DNA from: a virus
Lineage: Duplodnaviria; Caudoviricetes
Strand: one strand, 5' to 3'
DNA: 64,000 bases
IMG/VR virus record: IMGVR_UViG_3300048502_000142
Span: 27,919-91,918 of that record
The notes under the pieces were generated by a model. That model was not told the origin of the DNA. It did no database searches and was given only the letters and a program-made list of their open reading frames with translations. Below, one piece after another: positions 1 through 9,135 of the stretch (positions within the stretch are counted from its first letter, which is position 1; every line of letters starts with the position of its first letter). The translations under genes and the position numbers were made by a program.

Positions 1-681
1 CCTAGCGAACTCCTCCGGCGCGAGCGATGCCCACTCGGCGTCGCTGTGGAAGGGACAGAAAACACATGCCGACTTCTGCGGACGCGGATAAGCGTTCTCC
101 TTTATCCACCTCAAACAATCCCCACGAGACATCCCTAGCGCAATCAATGGCCATCGACTCTCCCACCACGCCTCGCGAGACGGCTTCATCCGCTGCGCCT
201 CATCTGCGGATATGCCAATCCATTGTGAGCAGATCGGAGACGTCGGGGACCGCTTCCCGACTATACCTAGCAGCTCGCGCACCCGGCGTCGGATAGGGAC
301 GATCTTAAAGTCACGCGTACAGGACCGGTTAATTATCGCCACGCGCCCGTCGTCGTTCCTTACGAACGCGGGAATATCAACCCTCAGGAACTTCCCTATA
401 GGCCGCTCGGAGGCGACGAGACCCTCCAGGTTCCCGGCCGTAACGTCGTAGACTGGGAAGGGAAGGACGGTCCGCAACCACTCTAGGTGCCGGTAGACGT
501 GCGCCGGCTCCGCCTGCGTATCGGCGAAGATCGCACAGTCTGGCATCGGCAAGATCAACCCTGCGGCAGCCATCAGCGCCATCGTCGTAGACTGCACACC
601 CGCCCCAAGCGATAGGATGTTTAGGCGCAGGGCTCTAGCGACCTTCCTCGCCCGGGCCTGGTCGACCGCTGCGTTGCTCAT
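1..681 (-). CDS. PAPS reductase-like / adenine nucleotide alpha-hydrolase family protein (3' end outside window)
   Basis: Not in ORF track. Manual translation: MSNAAVDQARARKVARALRLNILSLGAGVQSTTMALMAAAG...PDCAIFADTQAEPAHVYRHLEWL...RSCTRDFKIVPI...QWIGISADE. SLGAGVQS PP-loop and FADT motif. ATG overlaps the upstream stop (ATGA at 678-681). Confidence 0.8.
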   Translation of the reverse strand, partial: MSNAAVDQARARKVARALRLNILSLGAGVQSTTMALMAAAGLILPMPDCAIFADTQAEPAHVYRHLEWLRTVLPFPVYDVTAGNLEGLVASERPIGKFLRVDIPAFVRNDDGRVAIINRSCTRDFKIVPIRRRVRELLGIVGKRSPTSPICSQWIGISADEAQRMKPSREAWWESRWPLIALGMSRGDCLRWIKENAYPRPQKSACVFCPFHSDAEWASLAPEEFAR

Positions 682-1901
682 ATTCCTAGCTGCTCCATCT
701 GCCGCATCGCGAGCCTGTACCCGACGAGGCTGTCGATCCCGTTGTAGACGAGGAGCGCGTCCTCGCCGAACCGCTCCACGAACTCGCGGAGCCTGTTCGG
801 GGCGTGGTAGCCGTCCGTCGACCGCATGTACGGATTTATCTCGGTCGACCAGTCGGGGACGCCGAAGTTCAGGAACGCCTGCACGTCGAGCCCGCACACG
901 CCCTGCCGGTTGTCGAGGACGTGCGCGGCGAGCATTGTGTCGAAGGCCCAGGCGATGCCCTCGACGCCCAGATGCACGGCGCTCCACGCGGCCTCGAACT
1001 TGATGTTGTGCGCGATCTTGCCGACCGCGCCGTCCTCTAGGACGTCTATCCAGGCGCGGCGGACCGCCTCCGATCCCGTCCATGGGAACGCGAACGCCTC
1101 CTCGCCCGACGTCGCGAACGACGCGGAGATCAGCTCCTGGACCTCCGGAACGAGCCCCGTCGTCTCGTAGTCGAACGAGAAGAACCGCGCGCGCCGGGCC
1201 GCGGCGAGGGTCGCCACGATCGCATCGTCCCCCCGCAGGATCCGCACCCTCCTGCGCAGGTCGTCCGGCCGGGGAAGCGGGGCGTCGAGCAGCTTCACCG
1301 CCTCCGCAAGGTCGCGGCGCCATATGACACCGACCTCCGGGTTCCGCTCCTCGCGGGCGACGAAGCTCGGGTGGTAGGTCGGGCAGACGTGGCACCCCCA
1401 GTCCGGAACCGGTATCCGCCAGCCGCGCCACTTCGAGATAGAATCCGTCAGCGGCGATATCTGCCCGAGCACCGACGCCGTCGCGACGCCGCCGAGCAGG
1501 ATTATCACCCTCGGCCTGTAGTCCCTGATAGAGGGCTCTACGAACTTCGCCTGGCAGCAGGCGCGCTCGTGAGGCGCCGGCTCGCGATTCTCTGGTGGAC
1601 GACACGCTACGCTGTTGAGACTTATGCAATCCAGGTCCAAGTTCACGTCCACGTCGTACAGAGCATCGCGCAGGAGCCTCCCTGTAGGCCCCTGCCACGG
1701 CTTCCCACGCTTGTCCTCTACCGCTCCCGGCGCCTCCCCTATCGTCATGATCTTCCGACGGAACTCCCCGTGCGGGGGCATCTTCGGGGAGACGACATCC
1801 TTGAACAATCCGCACGAGATGCAAGACAACGTACGCGCCGACGCTACCGACGTGTTGTCGCCGGTCGACGGGCCGATGTCGAATAGGAGACGCGCAGGCA
1901 T
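678..1901 (-). CDS. Family-4 uracil-DNA glycosylase fused to PolA-type 3'-5' exonuclease (no polymerase domain)
   Basis: CISC/CRPP/CC Fe-S cysteines, GEAPG and YHPS UDG motifs; then Exo I DYETTGL, Exo II AHNIKFE, FDTMLAAHVLD, Exo III YNGIDS; stop follows Exo III. Confidence 0.88.
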   Translation of the reverse strand: MPARLLFDIGPSTGDNTSVASARTLSCISCGLFKDVVSPKMPPHGEFRRKIMTIGEAPGAVEDKRGKPWQGPTGRLLRDALYDVDVNLDLDCISLNSVACRPPENREPAPHERACCQAKFVEPSIRDYRPRVIILLGGVATASVLGQISPLTDSISKWRGWRIPVPDWGCHVCPTYHPSFVAREERNPEVGVIWRRDLAEAVKLLDAPLPRPDDLRRRVRILRGDDAIVATLAAARRARFFSFDYETTGLVPEVQELISASFATSGEEAFAFPWTGSEAVRRAWIDVLEDGAVGKIAHNIKFEAAWSAVHLGVEGIAWAFDTMLAAHVLDNRQGVCGLDVQAFLNFGVPDWSTEINPYMRSTDGYHAPNRLREFVERFGEDALLVYNGIDSLVGYRLAMRQMEQLGI

Positions 1902-2952: not shown

Positions 2953-4878
2953 TCAGGCGACGGGAACTATCCCGCACTCGATCGCGGCCCGGCCGATAGC
3001 GGTTACGACCTGCGGGACCACGGTATTCCCCAGCACCCTTAGCCGGTCGTCCCGCCGACGTCGGTCCACCCCGCGGGGTAGCCCATGTACTGCTCCGCCC
3101 AGCAGGGGTTCATCCGGGACCGCCACCTTTCCGGCATCGAGGGCTCTTCCGAGGGCGCGGACGAAGGATAGCCCCAGATCCACTCCTCCCGCCGCCCTAC
3201 CAGGTCCGACATGGGGACCGGCTCCGCCACCGACAGGTTCGGGAGGTTCCCCATTATCCGGCCCCACTTGTTGTGGGCCGTCCCCTCCCGGCCCCACTCG
3301 TCCCCGCTCAGAAGGGTAGGCCACAATCCACATGCGGTCCCTCTCGTGTAGAGCGCCCACTCGGGAAGCCGGTACGCAGCACCAGACCGCGTCGTACCCC
3401 ACCTCGGAAAGGTCCCCAAGAACGCGGCCGAGTCCCCTTCCAGCGAGCGCCGCGACGTTCTCCACGATCGCGACGCGGGGTCGTACCTCGCGAACCAGCC
3501 GCGCGTACTCGCCCCAGAGCCAGCTTCCGCCCTTGTCGCCGCGTCCCTCGACGGGTCCTCCATCTACGCCCCTCTTGTGTCCGGCATTGGAAACGTCGAT
3601 GCAGTTGTGAACGACGATGCCGTCTGCGACGTAGCTCTCGTCTTCCTCAACCGCAAAGTTATATACGTCCTCTACTGTCCCTTCCTCAACAACGGATCGG
3701 ATCGGCCCGAAGAAGTGTCCGTCGAGGACCCTCCCCTGCTTAGACGTAGTCGCCCCGCGGAGTTCCCAGTGGAATGGCTGCTGATTAACGACGCGTCCCT
3801 CTATCTCACACGTAGTTCCCGCATGCTTGCAATAGTACACCGCGACTGATTGCCCGAGTCCTAGAGCGAGCAGACGCATACCGATCGCGAGCCGCTTCGA
3901 TATCGAAGCGGCGCGCCAACTCCCATCGTAGACGGTCCCGTCGCCGGATATCCACCCGTCCAAGAGAGCCTGCCGACAGGACGCTGGCAGACCGTACACC
4001 CACGACGGCAGCCGCTTATTCGCCGCGCCCTTGTCGAATTGAGACAGGTAATCGAACAGCTTCGCATGTTGCACTACAAACTTCACAACAGTAGATTCGT
4101 TAGCTCGCGTCACGTGGAGACCCGCACCCTTGCGAAGCCGATCAACGAGTTCTCCTACCTCGTTGTAAGCACAACACCAGTGGACGCGCTTTGCCCAACT
4201 GTTCTTCCTGCTGCCGCGTCCATGTGCAACCTTACTCGTCCGCTTAAATGACACACACCGGCCGTCCGCGAGCCAGCGCCCTACGGCCCAATAAAAATCC
4301 TCGTCGCTCTCGCGCTCGGAAGCCGGAATCTCCGGCGCCGGGAGATCCGCCTCTATAGATACGGGGCTTGCCCACAGCATCCCTCTCGAAAGATTGCGGG
4401 CGTCGATCCATTCCGGCTCTACGGCAGCTCTATCACAGAGAGCGTAGAACGGATGCTCTCCCGTTACGCGCATCACAGGCTGCCCTAGTCCTCGGACGTT
4501 TAGAATAGGCGCGTCCCTATTTACATACGTCTCCTTTACCCGACGCCACCGACCCCGGTGTGTCAGGACAACGTCATCAACAACAACCTCGGAGATGTCT
4601 ACCATCCCACGACGGGTCAGGATTAGCGTTCCCTTCGGAAAGCACGGGAAACCACCACAGATTGCATCGACCTGTATATTATCTACCTTTAGTCTTTCTG
4701 CCGTAAGTCCCTGGACGTCCCGGTATCGTCGCACCCCCGGCCAGTGCTCGGCGAGGACGCGCCGGCAGAAGCGGTCCGTATCGCAGAACGCCACGGTGCG
4801 GAAGCGTCCGGTGGCTTCGAGGCCATAAGAAAAACCCCCTATGCCACTGAACAAATCTAGCAGATTGAGAATAGCCAA
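2953..4878 (-). CDS. C5 cytosine DNA methyltransferase (alpha chain) with intein
   Basis: Motif I DLFSGIGG, motif IV GGFP-[intein]-C, VI ENV, VIII HERDRMWIVA, X LGNTVVPQV; TTG start. Confidence 0.93.
   Translation of the reverse strand: MAILNLLDLFSGIGGFSYGLEATGRFRTVAFCDTDRFCRRVLAEHWPGVRRYRDVQGLTAERLKVDNIQVDAICGGFPCFPKGTLILTRRGMVDISEVVVDDVVLTHRGRWRRVKETYVNRDAPILNVRGLGQPVMRVTGEHPFYALCDRAAVEPEWIDARNLSRGMLWASPVSIEADLPAPEIPASERESDEDFYWAVGRWLADGRCVSFKRTSKVAHGRGSRKNSWAKRVHWCCAYNEVGELVDRLRKGAGLHVTRANESTVVKFVVQHAKLFDYLSQFDKGAANKRLPSWVYGLPASCRQALLDGWISGDGTVYDGSWRAASISKRLAIGMRLLALGLGQSVAVYYCKHAGTTCEIEGRVVNQQPFHWELRGATTSKQGRVLDGHFFGPIRSVVEEGTVEDVYNFAVEEDESYVADGIVVHNCIDVSNAGHKRGVDGGPVEGRGDKGGSWLWGEYARLVREVRPRVAIVENVAALAGRGLGRVLGDLSEVGYDAVWCCVPASRVGALHERDRMWIVAYPSERGRVGPGGDGPQQVGPDNGEPPEPVGGGAGPHVGPGRAAGGVDLGLSFVRALGRALDAGKVAVPDEPLLGGAVHGLPRGVDRRRRDDRLRVLGNTVVPQVVTAIGRAAIECGIVPVA
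3039..3563 (-). CDS. Nested alternative-frame methyltransferase beta subunit (motif IX donor, M.EcoHK31I-like arrangement)
   Basis: 174 aa ATG ORF wholly inside the MTase gene in another frame: FARYDPASRSWRTS...TFPRWG...GLWPT...RMNPCWAEQYMGYPAGWTD. The last segment matches motif IX, which the alpha frame lacks. Confidence 0.75.
   Translation of the reverse strand: MEDPSRDAATRAEAGSGASTRGWFARYDPASRSWRTSRRSLEGDSAAFLGTFPRWGTTRSGAAYRLPEWALYTRGTACGLWPTLLSGDEWGREGTAHNKWGRIMGNLPNLSVAEPVPMSDLVGRREEWIWGYPSSAPSEEPSMPERWRSRMNPCWAEQYMGYPAGWTDVGGTTG
3604..4644 (-). mobile_element. Intein with LAGLIDADG homing endonuclease (347 aa) in the methyltransferase
   Basis: Starts CFPKGTLILT, block B VTGEHPF, LAGLIDADG-like VGRWLADG and LDGWISGDG, ends VYNFAVEEDESYVADGIVVHN followed by C+1; visibly lower GC than flanks. 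Confidence 0.93.
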
Positions 4879-5077
4879 TCAAAGCCTCCTCGCCGCGACG
4901 TCGGCGAGGTACCTCGCCAGGTAGTGATCGGTCGGGACGTAACCTAGGTCGTCTCCCGCGGTCGAGAGGTCACGGACGCGCGGCCACCTGCGGAAGATCT
5001 CCGCATGCACCGGTCGTGCCGCGCGCTACGTCGTCCTATTGACGAGCGCGCAAGCGGCCAGCATCCGGAACGGACAG

Positions 5078-5947: not shown

Positions 5948-6286
5948 CTACCGTTCCGCTATGCGCTCTAGCGCCTCGATCTGCCGATCCGAGAGCGTCC
6001 CCGTCCGCTCGAACTGCTCCCGCACGTCGACGACGAACTCGCTGCGGTCGCGCTCCAGCCTGCCTAGCAGGTCCTCGATGTCGGCGCGGCGACGGGGTGA
6101 CTCCGGGGGAATCGATCCCCGCTCTACCGTCGCCGCCCAGACCCGCGACAGGACCTTTACCCAGTCTAGGTCGTGCTTCCGCAGGATCTCGTTCGCCGAG
6201 CGCAGCGCCGTGAGCGCCTCCGCGTCGGACCCCGAGAGGGTCTTGTTCATCAGCACCTTCAGGCGCGACAGGTCGTTCAGGTTCAT
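5948..6286 (-). CDS. Hypothetical protein, related to the N-terminus of the gene at 12973
   Basis: LSGSDAEALTALRSANEILRKHDLDW resembles GSSSEGEIVAAVAAIGRMLVADGKDW; ATGA coupling to the helicase stop. Confidence 0.65.
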   Translation of the reverse strand: MNLNDLSRLKVLMNKTLSGSDAEALTALRSANEILRKHDLDWVKVLSRVWAATVERGSIPPESPRRRADIEDLLGRLERDRSEFVVDVREQFERTGTLSDRQIEALERIAER

Positions 6287-9135
6287 TTCAACAGGTAACT
6301 CCCCGTAAACGGTCGCCCCCTATTTAGGTGCTGCATGACGACGACCTGGTCGTCGACGGAGAACGCCCCGTCGCGGACGAGGATCGCGCCGACCCGGATC
6401 ACCCCAAGGGCCTTCTCGCGCCCGTCCGGGGACTGGTTCAGGGCGAACATGGCTGTCACGTGGGCGTTCTTGCGCTTGTCCTCCGTGAAGTTCCCGACGC
6501 TGAGCTTGCCCTGCTTGTAGCTCGCGGCGTCGGCCTGCGTAACCGTCACGAGGAGGGCGTGGCGCTCCTGGCTCACCCGGCGCAAACCACCCCATATGTC
6601 GTCCTGCTTGTGCCGGAACTCCTTGACGTCGGACGACATAATGTCCGGGTAGTCGACCACGATGACGTCGGGAACGAAGTCGTCCACCCGCTCCCACTCG
6701 TCTAGGCAGCTATCCATCTCGGCCGTCGTCAGCGTATTGCGCGAGTAGGTCGCGAGCTTAAACCGGCGGCGGTGACGCCTGAAGAAGTGCTCGGCGTGCC
6801 GACGCGCTATCTTCCCGGTCAAGACTTCCCGCGCGTCCACGTGCATGAGCCACACGGTGGGGCGCCGGACGGCGCAGGTCCCGCTCTCGCACGGCCGGTA
6901 GTCCGGAAAGTCCCGGGCCTTCTCGGTCAGCGTCGAGAGGCACTCGAAGCTACCGCGGTCCTTGTAGAACTCCTCAAGCTGCCCCTCGTGGATCCCGTGG
7001 TCGCAGTTGCGGTCGGACCGGTCGCAGGCGTCAAATTGGTTCTTGACGCAGTCGCCGACCGCGTACCAGTGCTCGACGCAGGCCTTCGGGTCGTCCGACC
7101 AGCCGGCCAAGTGGACGCCGAAGCGCCGGAGTTGCTGGTCCTGTGTCATGTCACCTCCCTGAAAGAACGCGACGTTCCGCTGCTGGCGGATCGCCCGCAC
7201 GACGATGTCCAGCAGCCACCAGGTATTGTGGACTAAGACATTCTCGGCAACGAAATTATGCTGATTAGCCACCGTTAAATCGAACGTCTCTTCACTCCCG
7301 ACAAAGTCAATCGACAGAATCTCGTCCCACAATATTTGGGAGTTTAGATACTTTACGCCGGCAACGGTGTCCGATACCTCGGTAAACGATTGCCGCATTA
7401 TCGGCAATCCCTTATCCAACTGCTGACGAATGGCGGGCGCTTTCGTAAAGCACTTTACAAAAGCCCTCCACCGCGGATCGTGCCTGTCACGCCGGACACC
7501 AAAAACGCCGAACTCGCGCTCGACATCATCATAAAATCGACGCGCTACTTCCGAGGGGAATTTATCAAGAAAAGACCGAAGTACCGTGGGGCTATCCGAA
7601 GTAACTCGGCAGAGTTTCTCTCCCTTTCCAAATAGACACCCTACTCTATTCCTAAATCGAGTGATATTCTCACAATCACGAACGGCTACCGTCCACGCAC
7701 CCTTGCATATGTTCTCCTTAAAATGCACCCGAGAGACAATCCCGAATCTCGATAGGAGTTCCTGGACCTGCCTTGCTAGACGCTCGTTCGCTACGGAGAA
7801 TCCCACCCCCTTTCCGCTTCCGTCTACCCACCCATCACAAGTATACAAGACGGACAAAAAGAGACTAATCTCGGCCGAGTTCAACCTAAACACAATAGGG
7901 GGAACGAGTTTGTCGTACGACCTCTTATTCATAAGGCCATTCTCAAAAAGGAAATTCCGAACGTGATTGTGCCTGTGCAGGCCGCGAACGGCCTCCGCAT
8001 TATACACGCCGCAATTAATCCCCTTCCAAACGGTCCGACAACCCATCGCGGAGACGCACCGATCAAAATCGCGCCTAATATCCTCATCCGCCGTAGTAAA
8101 CTGCACTCGCTCCCGCATCTCATTACCTAGGCACCCCTCAGCGATAAAATAGGCGAGCAGCCTGATCTTCTCGTCAGGAAGGGTCTCACTACCGAATACC
8201 GGTATCTCCTTAGGTACCGCGATGTACCGACCAATCTCTAGATCCTGTAACTCGACCCACCCATCAGGAGTTAAGAATGGATGATTTTTAGTCACCTTTA
8301 CTTTACGTCCCGTCCGCGTTGTCACACTCCAAACGTCTTTTACACCATTCACATAAAAATCCGTAATAGTTGAGGGGACGAATTGCCCAATAGTCTCATC
8401 ATACGCGATTACATCACGGCGCTCGTCCCGAATAACGTCCCGAATGGGAAGGACGTCCCCATTAGACAATAAGACGCGTTGATCTCCCGGTAGACACTTG
8501 CCGCGCTTCTCGGGGGCGAGGAAGGCGACGAGGGAGGCGCGGGAGAGTTCGGAGTTGAGCATATCCCCGAGGTCGCCGGGGTACTCCACGACGGGCTTAC
8601 GGACGGTGCCGAAGGCGCGCTCGATGGCCTCGAACCCCTGGGGGGAGTTGACGTCGAGCCCTCGGGTCGTCTCGAAGCTCGTCGGCCGGAACGACCGGAG
8701 TGCCCTCTCGACCGCCTCGTCGTCGCCGCGCTCGCTCGCGACCATGACCTCGTCCAGGTAGGTCTTCTGCTCGCGCTGCCGCAGGTACTTGACCGTCCGG
8801 TCGTAGAGGTAGTCGGCGTTGAACAGCTCGTCGCGGCCGTACTCGGCCGAGACCGTCTCCAGCACCCTCTCGATGTACTCGGCCTCGGCCTTGGGAACCC
8901 CCTCGGACTGGACGCGCTCGAAGTAGATCGCCCCCAGGTCCGTGTCGGCGACCCTGCCGTACTTGTCGAAGTGCTCCAGGCACCAGCGGGCGACGCGTCC
9001 CAGCTCCGGAGACTCCAGCAGGTCGTCGCGCCAGAAGCGCCGGATCTTCCGGACGAAGACGCTCGACACGGCAAGGCCGGTGACGATGCGCCGCTCGACG
9101 TCGGAGGCGGACCTCCCCTCTCGGATCGTACCCAA
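6283..9135 (-). CDS. DnaB/gp41-like replicative helicase with intein
   Basis: Likely TTG start at 9135, just after the upstream stop; the ORF-track extension to 10509 is a shadow. Walker A APEKRGK-[intein]-T, Walker B VIVVDYPD, VTQ, and EDKRKNAHVT motifs. Confidence 0.9.
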   Translation of the reverse strand: MGTIREGRSASDVERRIVTGLAVSSVFVRKIRRFWRDDLLESPELGRVARWCLEHFDKYGRVADTDLGAIYFERVQSEGVPKAEAEYIERVLETVSAEYGRDELFNADYLYDRTVKYLRQREQKTYLDEVMVASERGDDEAVERALRSFRPTSFETTRGLDVNSPQGFEAIERAFGTVRKPVVEYPGDLGDMLNSELSRASLVAFLAPEKRGKCLPGDQRVLLSNGDVLPIRDVIRDERRDVIAYDETIGQFVPSTITDFYVNGVKDVWSVTTRTGRKVKVTKNHPFLTPDGWVELQDLEIGRYIAVPKEIPVFGSETLPDEKIRLLAYFIAEGCLGNEMRERVQFTTADEDIRRDFDRCVSAMGCRTVWKGINCGVYNAEAVRGLHRHNHVRNFLFENGLMNKRSYDKLVPPIVFRLNSAEISLFLSVLYTCDGWVDGSGKGVGFSVANERLARQVQELLSRFGIVSRVHFKENICKGAWTVAVRDCENITRFRNRVGCLFGKGEKLCRVTSDSPTVLRSFLDKFPSEVARRFYDDVEREFGVFGVRRDRHDPRWRAFVKCFTKAPAIRQQLDKGLPIMRQSFTEVSDTVAGVKYLNSQILWDEILSIDFVGSEETFDLTVANQHNFVAENVLVHNTWWLLDIVVRAIRQQRNVAFFQGGDMTQDQQLRRFGVHLAGWSDDPKACVEHWYAVGDCVKNQFDACDRSDRNCDHGIHEGQLEEFYKDRGSFECLSTLTEKARDFPDYRPCESGTCAVRRPTVWLMHVDAREVLTGKIARRHAEHFFRRHRRRFKLATYSRNTLTTAEMDSCLDEWERVDDFVPDVIVVDYPDIMSSDVKEFRHKQDDIWGGLRRVSQERHALLVTVTQADAASYKQGKLSVGNFTEDKRKNAHVTAMFALNQSPDGREKALGVIRVGAILVRDGAFSVDDQVVVMQHLNRGRPFTGSYLLK
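7225..8496 (-). mobile_element. Intein with LAGLIDADG homing endonuclease (424 aa) in the helicase P-loop
   Basis: Starts CLPGDQRVLL, TKNHPF block B, LLAYFIAEG and LYTCDG endonuclease motifs, ends TFDLTVANQHNFVAENVLVHN then T+1; markedly AT-richer. Confidence 0.93.

Follow-up and report, generated by a model that had tools for sequence, protein, structure and literature searches.

The methyltransferase gene and the frame within it

The window analysed here is a stretch of 64,000 nucleotides (nt) within the 91.9-kb uncultured-virus record IMGVR_UViG_3300048502_000142. Its minus strand carries a gene for the large-domain chain (alpha) of a C5-cytosine DNA methyltransferase, which is interrupted by an intein. 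Wholly inside this gene (2953-4878), on the same strand and in the +1 frame, lies a second open reading frame (ORF) for a smaller chain (beta) of 174 amino acids (aa). The arrangement resembles that of M.EcoHK31I, in which the beta chain has its entire coding region inside the gene for alpha, in another frame, alpha holds motifs I-VIII and X, beta holds motif IX, and both chains are needed (PMC2836561, PMC3404938). The original prediction, made from the letters of the DNA, cited this precedent accurately and proposed a nested subunit combined with an intein. The features of the locus are collected in Table 1.

The alpha ORF matches PF00145 (1e-24, 88 bits against a cut-off of 22) and phrog_363, annotated as 'DNA methyltransferase' (4.7e-54). 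The C5 methyltransferase motifs I (FSGIGG), IV (PC), VI (ENV), VIII (RDR) and X (GNTVVPQ) are all present, and in an alignment of 127 relatives alpha keeps every family invariant, namely G24, G76, P78, C426, S430, E473, N474, R513, R515, G617 and N618. Between motifs VIII and X, motif IX was not found by reading the motifs and aligning them to the same 127 relatives. As had been predicted, this part of alpha is instead a linker rich in Gly, Pro and Val (22, 11 and 10 of 83 residues). The Pro-Cys pair of motif IV arises only through splicing, and the spliced alpha chain is predicted to have 294 residues.

The beta frame opens with an ATG at 3563, 40 nt downstream of the intein end (3604), the spacing originally noticed, and 13 codons after the catalytic Cys. 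A TAG stop (3564-3566) immediately precedes this ATG, and the frame closes with TAA at 3039-3041. The start signals of beta use alpha codons (AAG AGG .. GTA GAT G) that are rare in the phage, AGG making up 14% of Arg, GTA 3.6% of Val and GAT 11% of Asp codons. Beta matches phrog_1008, 'DNA methyltransferase' (3.9e-14); no Pfam match was obtained. A similar-length word-indexed protein search with the window beta gave no match, and the relatives came from an exhaustive profile search. With tblastn, 57 phage records were matched over 82-95% of the beta length, and phmmer retrieved 5282 cluster representatives at E<=1e-3, mostly of 160-350 aa. The named relatives are called 'hypothetical protein' and nearly all are without a Pfam family.

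Beta retains the invariant and near-invariant residues of 140 relatives (W34, P53, G56, G61, P82, T83, P153, E157, M160, G161, P163, W166 and T167). It aligns with Corndog gp6, an annotated methyltransferase, and its residues 150-168 align with the family block ..LNPxWVEWLMGFPxGWTD, also found in Corndog gp6. The motif IX-like segment that had been read at the end of the 174-aa ORF, RMNPCWAEQYMGYPAGWTD, is therefore what it seemed; the description of beta as a motif IX subunit was too narrow, for the whole recognition region lies in beta as well. The expectation that standard annotation would miss the second gene also held in part. The full frame is uncalled, but a stored 71-aa protein (P0004) is identical to beta residues 104-174, so automatic gene calling captured only the tail.

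Table 1. Features of the methyltransferase locus, in window coordinates.
Feature	Position	Strand	Basis or remark
Alpha precursor gene, C5-cytosine methyltransferase large-domain chain, intein-interrupted, 641 aa	2953-4878	-	TTG start at 4878; ORF and homology
Shine-Dalgarno sequence of alpha, GAGGAGG	4885-4891	-	6 nt ahead of the TTG start; sequence read
N-extein, residues 1-78, motif I (FSGIGG) to ..GGFP of motif IV	4645-4878	-	AlphaFold2 (AF2) predicted local distance difference test (pLDDT) 94-98
Class-1 intein, residues 79-425 (347 residues), in-frame LAGLIDADG homing-endonuclease domain	3604-4644	-	Boundaries against intein-less relatives; homology
C-extein, residues 426-641, catalytic Cys, motifs VI and VIII, linker, motif X	2956-3603	-	AF2 pLDDT 87-97 (440-525), ~90 (606-634)
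Motif VI (ENV), alpha frame	3454-3462	-	Read and aligned to relatives
Motif VIII (RDR), alpha residues 513-515	3334-3342	-	Read and aligned to relatives
Alpha linker, residues 524-606, G/P/V-rich	3061-3309	-	Composition; overlies beta recognition region and motif IX
Motif X (GNTVVPQ), alpha residues 617-623	3010-3030	-	Alpha frame again, just 3' of the beta stop
Shine-Dalgarno-like sequence of beta, AAGAGGGG	3569-3576	-	End of GAGG 7 nt upstream of the ATG
Beta gene, nested in alpha's +1 frame, 174 aa, with a hairpin region at the N-terminus, a recognition module of the PT(P) type (LWPT..) and motif IX	3039-3563	-	ORF, phrog_1008, tblastn
Stretch coding in both frames, motifs VI-VIII of alpha overlying the N-terminal part of beta (..YDPASRSWRTS.., ..FPRWG..)	3320-3563	-	Codon-choice tests, frame-wise conservation, AF2
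Motif IX in the beta frame, RMNPCWAEQYMGYPAGWTD	3060-3116	-	Most conserved beta block of the family

Conservation of the layout and selection in both frames

The layout was followed in two sets of relatives. The viral set (n=84) comprises 80 IMG/VR loci found by beta alignment, Microcystis phage Mwe-JY08, the phages Che9d and Corndog, and the window itself; a six-sequence beta alignment was used for finding loci, a 17-sequence alignment being too diverse. The second set (n=80) consists of prokaryote-genome loci from many phyla, with similarity to alpha as the only ground of selection. In the viral set beta reads +1 to alpha at 84/84 loci, across a G+C range of 0.43-0.72, and a +1-frame beta match is likewise present in 80/80 of the alpha-selected loci, so the frame whose openness in homologues the original prediction had wanted checked is indeed kept. 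One ORF spans both the beta N-terminal part and motif IX in 63 of these 80 loci under strict criteria, and a few (L150, L157, L159, L161) look broken. Between motifs VIII and IX, alpha is stop-free in 82/84 viral loci, against 3/84 for the third frame, which has a mean of 4.6 stops. At 77/84 loci it is again alpha's frame that supplies motif X.

The same nesting occurs in finished genomes of cultured phages. Mwe-JY08 has alpha with a nested +1 beta, and Mycobacterium phage Che9d contains within gp80 an unannotated nested ORF of 198 codons. In Corndog, gp7 and gp6, both annotated as methylase genes, share 209 nt in a +1 relation, with motif X on beta. This is the layout of the M.AquI type, in which alpha carries motifs I-VIII and beta what remains of the variable region together with motifs IX and X (PMC3404938). 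The window shares with that type a two-chain C5 enzyme split in the variable region, but it returns to the alpha frame for motif X, which follows the beta stop, whereas the M.AquI-type alpha stops after motif VIII. An AquI-like version, with alpha stopping just after motif VIII and motif X in the beta frame, was seen in 2/84 loci, Corndog (L002:1589-2534) and L069. With the phrog_363 (alpha) and phrog_1008 (beta) family of phages and prophages, the window has in common the +1 nesting, the distribution of motifs and the read-through of alpha to motif X. It differs from this family (~160 relatives) in the intein within motif IV and in a beta start downstream of the intein. No insertion in motif IV was found among the ~160 relatives examined. 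The beta frame of most of these continues open upstream across motif IV; that of the window is bounded by the TAG and the intein. It is the comparative evidence that decides here: judged by it, the layout is the product of neither chance nor sequencing error.

Several loci depart from the common pattern. In one IMG/VR locus of mixed layout (L004:2275-3806), the alpha frame itself goes on through PTPxxxD modules to motifs IX and X (416 aa), and the +1 frame retains a beta-like N-terminal part that stops where alpha's own recognition modules begin. Two loci (L035:4324-5502 and L050:2871-3610) have a second, weaker alpha match just downstream, with the beta match one frame ahead of an alpha match, which suggests tandem nested methyltransferases. 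At L062:2363-5266 the beta frame is open for ~970 codons, far past motif IX, suggesting a beta fused to a large extra C-terminal region. A metagenome protein of 283 aa (P0012), in which alpha motifs I and IV run directly into the beta frame without motifs VI-VIII, most likely reflects a read with a frameshift or a gene that is broken.

The openness of a +1 run of 174 codons is by itself only mildly unusual in a GC-rich phage: the +1 frame of the phage's own genes has 2.9 stops per 100 codons, and of 197 stop-free runs there, 2 extend to 174 codons. Codon choice is more telling. At the position preceding ENV the alpha residue can be V, L or M, yet 75/81 loci use a codon of the form xTG there, by which the beta Trp is kept. 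Where this residue is Val, the codon is GTG in 48/48 cases of the viral set against a baseline of 29%; in the alpha-selected set GTG was counted 22 times, GTT 5 times and GTC or GTA 0 times (baseline 54%). The residue after ENV varies as well (mostly A/S/P/T), and an xCA codon in most loci keeps the beta Gln. Synonymous choice in alpha is thus bent towards keeping beta residues, which places both frames under selection.

Frame-wise conservation agrees in its extent along the gene. Beta exceeds the non-coding third frame from profile column ~40 on, and at motif IX the pairwise identity in the family is 0.71 for beta, 0.52 for alpha and 0.47 for the third frame. Over motif IV, beta residues are variable and the codon bias is modest; the motif IV region of beta, taken as a conserved domain from the phrog_1008 match (residues 8-89), was rejected for this variability. 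In Corndog, the beta segment 'WDP..W..FSGTWP' overlies an alpha-specific insertion and not ENV. After the codon-choice tests, similarity in the beta N-terminal part may be counted as real from about profile column 40. The window beta begins before that column, so the whole constrained part is retained.

The G+C content of third codon positions (GC3) switches along the gene in the same sense. It is 0.75 for alpha over motifs IV-VIII, then 0.91 for beta against 0.59 for alpha over 3042-3319, then 0.82 for alpha around motif X; neighbouring genes have 0.79-0.90. Since the third positions of the beta frame coincide with the first positions of alpha, which in the linker are 91% G+C, the low-information G/P/A/V/R-rich sequence of the linker is explained by the high GC3 of beta.

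Predicted structures fit this division of the two chains. In the AF2 model of the alpha precursor the exteins have a pLDDT of 87-98 and the intein part is unreliable; within the linker, the pLDDT falls below 50 at residues 528-544, 549-563 and 593-605. Against M.HhaI, 212/327 residues were aligned (Z 24.4, root-mean-square deviation 2.6), only the first and last aligned residues being reported. Some 212 residues is about the size of the large domain of M.HhaI. Whether alpha models with a complete fold had been raised at the outset as a check; on the model obtained, we take alpha alone to be without the small domain. A helix is predicted within the linker at residues 568-582 (3133-3177, minus strand; LGLSFVRALGRALDA) with a pLDDT of ~90, and it overlies the low-confidence middle of the beta model. 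In that model, two hairpins at residues 23-36 and 56-65, both in the doubly coded part, reach a pLDDT of ~80, and a motif IX helix at 153-160 reaches ~78.

The proposed reading of one transcript as two chains, and the alternatives

The reading to which a probability of about 0.8 is given is that one transcript yields two polypeptides jointly forming one C5-cytosine DNA methyltransferase of the M.EcoHK31I type. Ribosomes would start at TTG 4878 and produce the 641-residue alpha precursor, from which the intein would splice itself out, joining ..GGFP to Cys426. The spliced chain would be the large catalytic domain, binding S-adenosylmethionine, with motifs I-VIII and the motif X helix and a mostly disordered G/P-rich linker between them. 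Internal initiation at ATG 3563, with its own GAGG and in the +1 frame, would give the 174-residue beta, the small domain, with a hairpin region at its N-terminus followed by the recognition region and motif IX. The two chains would then associate as in M.EcoHK31I and both would be required. The presence of the two frames, their homology and conservation across the family, and protein-level selection in both are demonstrated by the comparisons above; initiation at 3563, splicing and assembly of a heterodimer are the steps that we infer from them.

M.EcoHK31I, from E. coli HK31, recognizes YGGCCR (Lee, Kam and Shaw 1995, as described in PMC2836561 and PMC3404938). Like it, the window has a second chain nested in another frame, a large chain with motifs I-VIII and X but not IX, and a small chain with motif IX. 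The two differ, as far as they can be compared by description, in that the recognition region of M.EcoHK31I has been reported in alpha, whereas in the window it is in beta and alpha has only a low-complexity linker there; the window alpha in addition carries an intein. The beta frame holds the conserved recognition blocks (..LWPT.., in relatives the PT(P) modules), and the alpha sequence that overlies them mostly has a pLDDT below 50 and is poorly conserved in relatives.

Several observations weigh against this interpretation. Motif IV of alpha reads PCI and not the usual PCQ, although PCI, PCV or PCT also occur in some relatives. Searches of the protein collection and of viral and metagenome contigs brought up nothing close, identity reaching at most 51% for beta (the nearest being P0005) and 50% for alpha, so that the constraint measured is that of the wider family. 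The N-terminal part of the window beta is less consensus-like than that of its relatives (TFPRWGTTRSG against TWPRSGMMRNG), and ~20 columns at the N-terminal end of the profile, covered by the open frame in most relatives, are absent from it. This bears on function, as N-terminal deletions of at least 42 residues in the beta of M.EcoHK31I weakened association (PMC2836561). Modelled alone, beta is poor (mean pLDDT 62.6), and a Foldseek search of the Protein Data Bank (PDB) with this low-confidence model gave no match, a result that says nothing on the fold. The N-terminal stretch of beta also shows a pairwise identity of 0.42-0.61, close to the 0.32-0.55 of the non-coding third frame, and its motifs are partly a +1-frame shadow of conserved alpha motifs: 'DSPARTS' is the +1 reading of GFPCQDxS, 'SSWRTS' of (I)VENV and 'MTRNG' of G(Y/F)DAEW.

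These last observations, together with the variable beta residues over motif IV, would be accommodated by a shorter beta, made only from about residue 80 (LWPT..) or from residue 104, the first ~80 codons being untranslated or an unimportant shadow of alpha motifs VI-VIII. The stored gene call starts at Met104, and a TTG at codon 80 has GAGGGA 11 nt upstream. A shadow would nevertheless not account for codons that keep the beta Trp and Gln while alpha varies, for the Corndog segment over an alpha-specific insertion, or for the excess of beta over the control frame from profile column ~40. The hairpins predicted in the doubly coded part also speak for its translation, no ATG other than that at 3563, which also has the best Shine-Dalgarno sequence, precedes residue 104, and a start at Met104 would lose the near-invariant P82 and T83. 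A shorter product is accordingly considered improbable, though less so than the two readings that follow.

It might also be supposed that the enzyme is a single polypeptide made by two programmed frameshifts, +1 after motif VIII and back before motif X, the beta ORF being merely its middle. Such an alpha-beta-alpha reading does restore the ordinary single-chain order of motifs I-VIII, recognition region, IX and X. It would not need alpha to stay open across ~90-170 beta codons, as it does in the viral set so much more often than the third frame, nor an open beta frame whose start codons lie ~80-100 codons upstream of motif VIII, and it would not yield a codon choice that preserves beta residues under ENV. 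In M.EcoHK31I, moreover, chains supplied from separate plasmids restore methylation, and removal of the beta-frame start codons abolishes it (PMC2836561). Double frameshifting is therefore held to be very improbable. Least credible of all is a single-chain methyltransferase disrupted by a pair of indels that offset each other, whether through misassembly or true mutation. The record is a metagenome-derived contig of an uncultured virus, chance stop-free runs of the required length do arise, and a few relatives have a broken look; but the nested layout recurs in the finished genomes of Che9d, Corndog and Mwe-JY08 and in ~160 further loci, every family-invariant residue is kept in both chains, and beta has its own Shine-Dalgarno sequence and ATG. 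By the conserved openness of both frames and the codon data, the shorter beta, the frameshift and the assembly error are all disfavoured in comparison with two separately initiated chains.

The intein, its neighbourhood and the meaning of the nested gene

By its sequence, the insert is read as a canonical class-1 homing intein, for which splicing and homing activity may be presumed. It begins with Cys79 and ends with H424-N425 (..VVHN), the next residue being the catalytic Cys426 of the PC motif, and alignment with the 127 intein-less relatives places it exactly between the invariant P78 (..GGFP) and the invariant C426. Its Pfam scores are under the gathering cut-offs (Hint_2 20.8/28.4, Intein_splicing 20.0/35.8, LAGLIDADG_3 14.4/22.5). 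It matches the intein-bearing phrog_26446 (5e-26) and, in the PDB, PI-PkoII (8e-5) and an intein-like domain (2e-4). Two LAGLIDADG-like motifs (..WLADG.., ..ISGDG..) retain their acidic residues. Full-length tblastn matches were obtained to inserts in other phage methylases, bounded by a Cys at the start and by HN or KN before a Cys at the end.

The inteins of the Pseudomonas phage Lana methylase, of EBPR siphovirus 2 gp44 and of the Pacc40-type actinophage methylase are 30-35% similar to it over all 347 residues; a LAGLIDADG intein in the last of these has been described (PMC9957025). As in the window, the Lana insert has Cys as its first residue and ..VVHN as its last ones, and the Cys of the C5 catalytic motif follows at once, but its host protein is a single-chain C5 enzyme of another type without a nested beta. 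Pacc40 gp60, which gave no match to the C5 alpha or beta profiles, differs further in looking like an amino-methyltransferase fusion, again without a nested beta. Both phages were thus rejected as further cases of an intein combined with a nested beta, their host genes being other methylase types. The gp60 of Mycobacterium phage Pacc40 (L176) is named 'anaerobic ribonucleoside reductase large subunit' in RefSeq and DNA methylase in GenBank; the RefSeq name was probably carried over from another intein host.

The N-extein and intein (3604-4878, minus strand) have a GC3 of ~0.60-0.63, under that of the neighbouring genes, and also under the 0.75 and 0.82 of alpha over motifs IV-VIII and around motif X. 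This would fit an import of the intein along with the 5' part of the gene, by co-conversion during homing from a donor of lower GC. The intein sits in motif IV, so the window beta cannot start upstream of that motif as the open frame permits in most relatives; its start still precedes the point at which beta-specific constraint becomes detectable in the family. One may imagine that both frames of the gene were in use before the intein invaded it, that the invasion severed the beta frame from its upstream part, and that selection then built a new beta start just downstream, with its TAG-ATG junction and Shine-Dalgarno sequence in rare alpha codons. This history is tentative and is thought unlikely on balance. 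The double constraint on the overlapped DNA possibly makes it a stable homing target.

The methyltransferase gene sits in a replication module. On one side lie a uracil-DNA glycosylase/3'-5' exonuclease fusion and then a 335-aa ORF with no Pfam match. The fusion (678-1901, minus strand) is a single 407-aa ORF with two domains, one of the uracil-DNA glycosylase superfamily (PF03167, 6e-22) and one a 3'-5' exonuclease of the DNA polymerase A type (PF01612, 1.8e-6). On the other side is a large ATPase gene (6286-9072, minus strand) with its own LAGLIDADG-bearing intein (PF14890, 2.4e-21; PF14528, 2.6e-18), which seems to interrupt the Walker A loop (..EKRGK before the first Cys, VHN before T.. 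at the end). The ATPase ORF as listed has 1408 codons and a long Arg/Pro-rich N-terminal extension that looks out of frame and is probably non-coding.

A literature search found papers on M.EcoHK31I, M.AquI, the actinophage methylase intein and ShiLan, none of them describing a family-wide nested layout. Nesting of this sort is the rule across a very large family of phages, with M.EcoHK31I as its single studied precedent. The window is a well-supported combined variant and not a new principle; what is particular to it is an intein together with a nested beta that starts downstream of it. Same-strand overlapping genes of such length are rare in bacterial viruses, the overlap here measuring ~175 codons, ~80 of them with protein-level selection in both frames. 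The locus is a compact natural test case for the coexistence of an intein with an overlapping gene, and it offers a simple genetic handle, since a single base change silent in alpha removes the beta start. Should the intein have invaded as imagined above, a mobile element would have reshaped an overlapping gene, and activity would hang on internal initiation, on protein splicing and on assembly of the heterodimer, three separate steps arising from a single piece of DNA. Genes nested as beta is are missed by gene callers, and alpha annotated alone looks like a complete methyltransferase but is without its DNA-recognition part. Without beta, specificity predictions for this family, and its expression for epigenetic or anti-restriction studies, would therefore fail.

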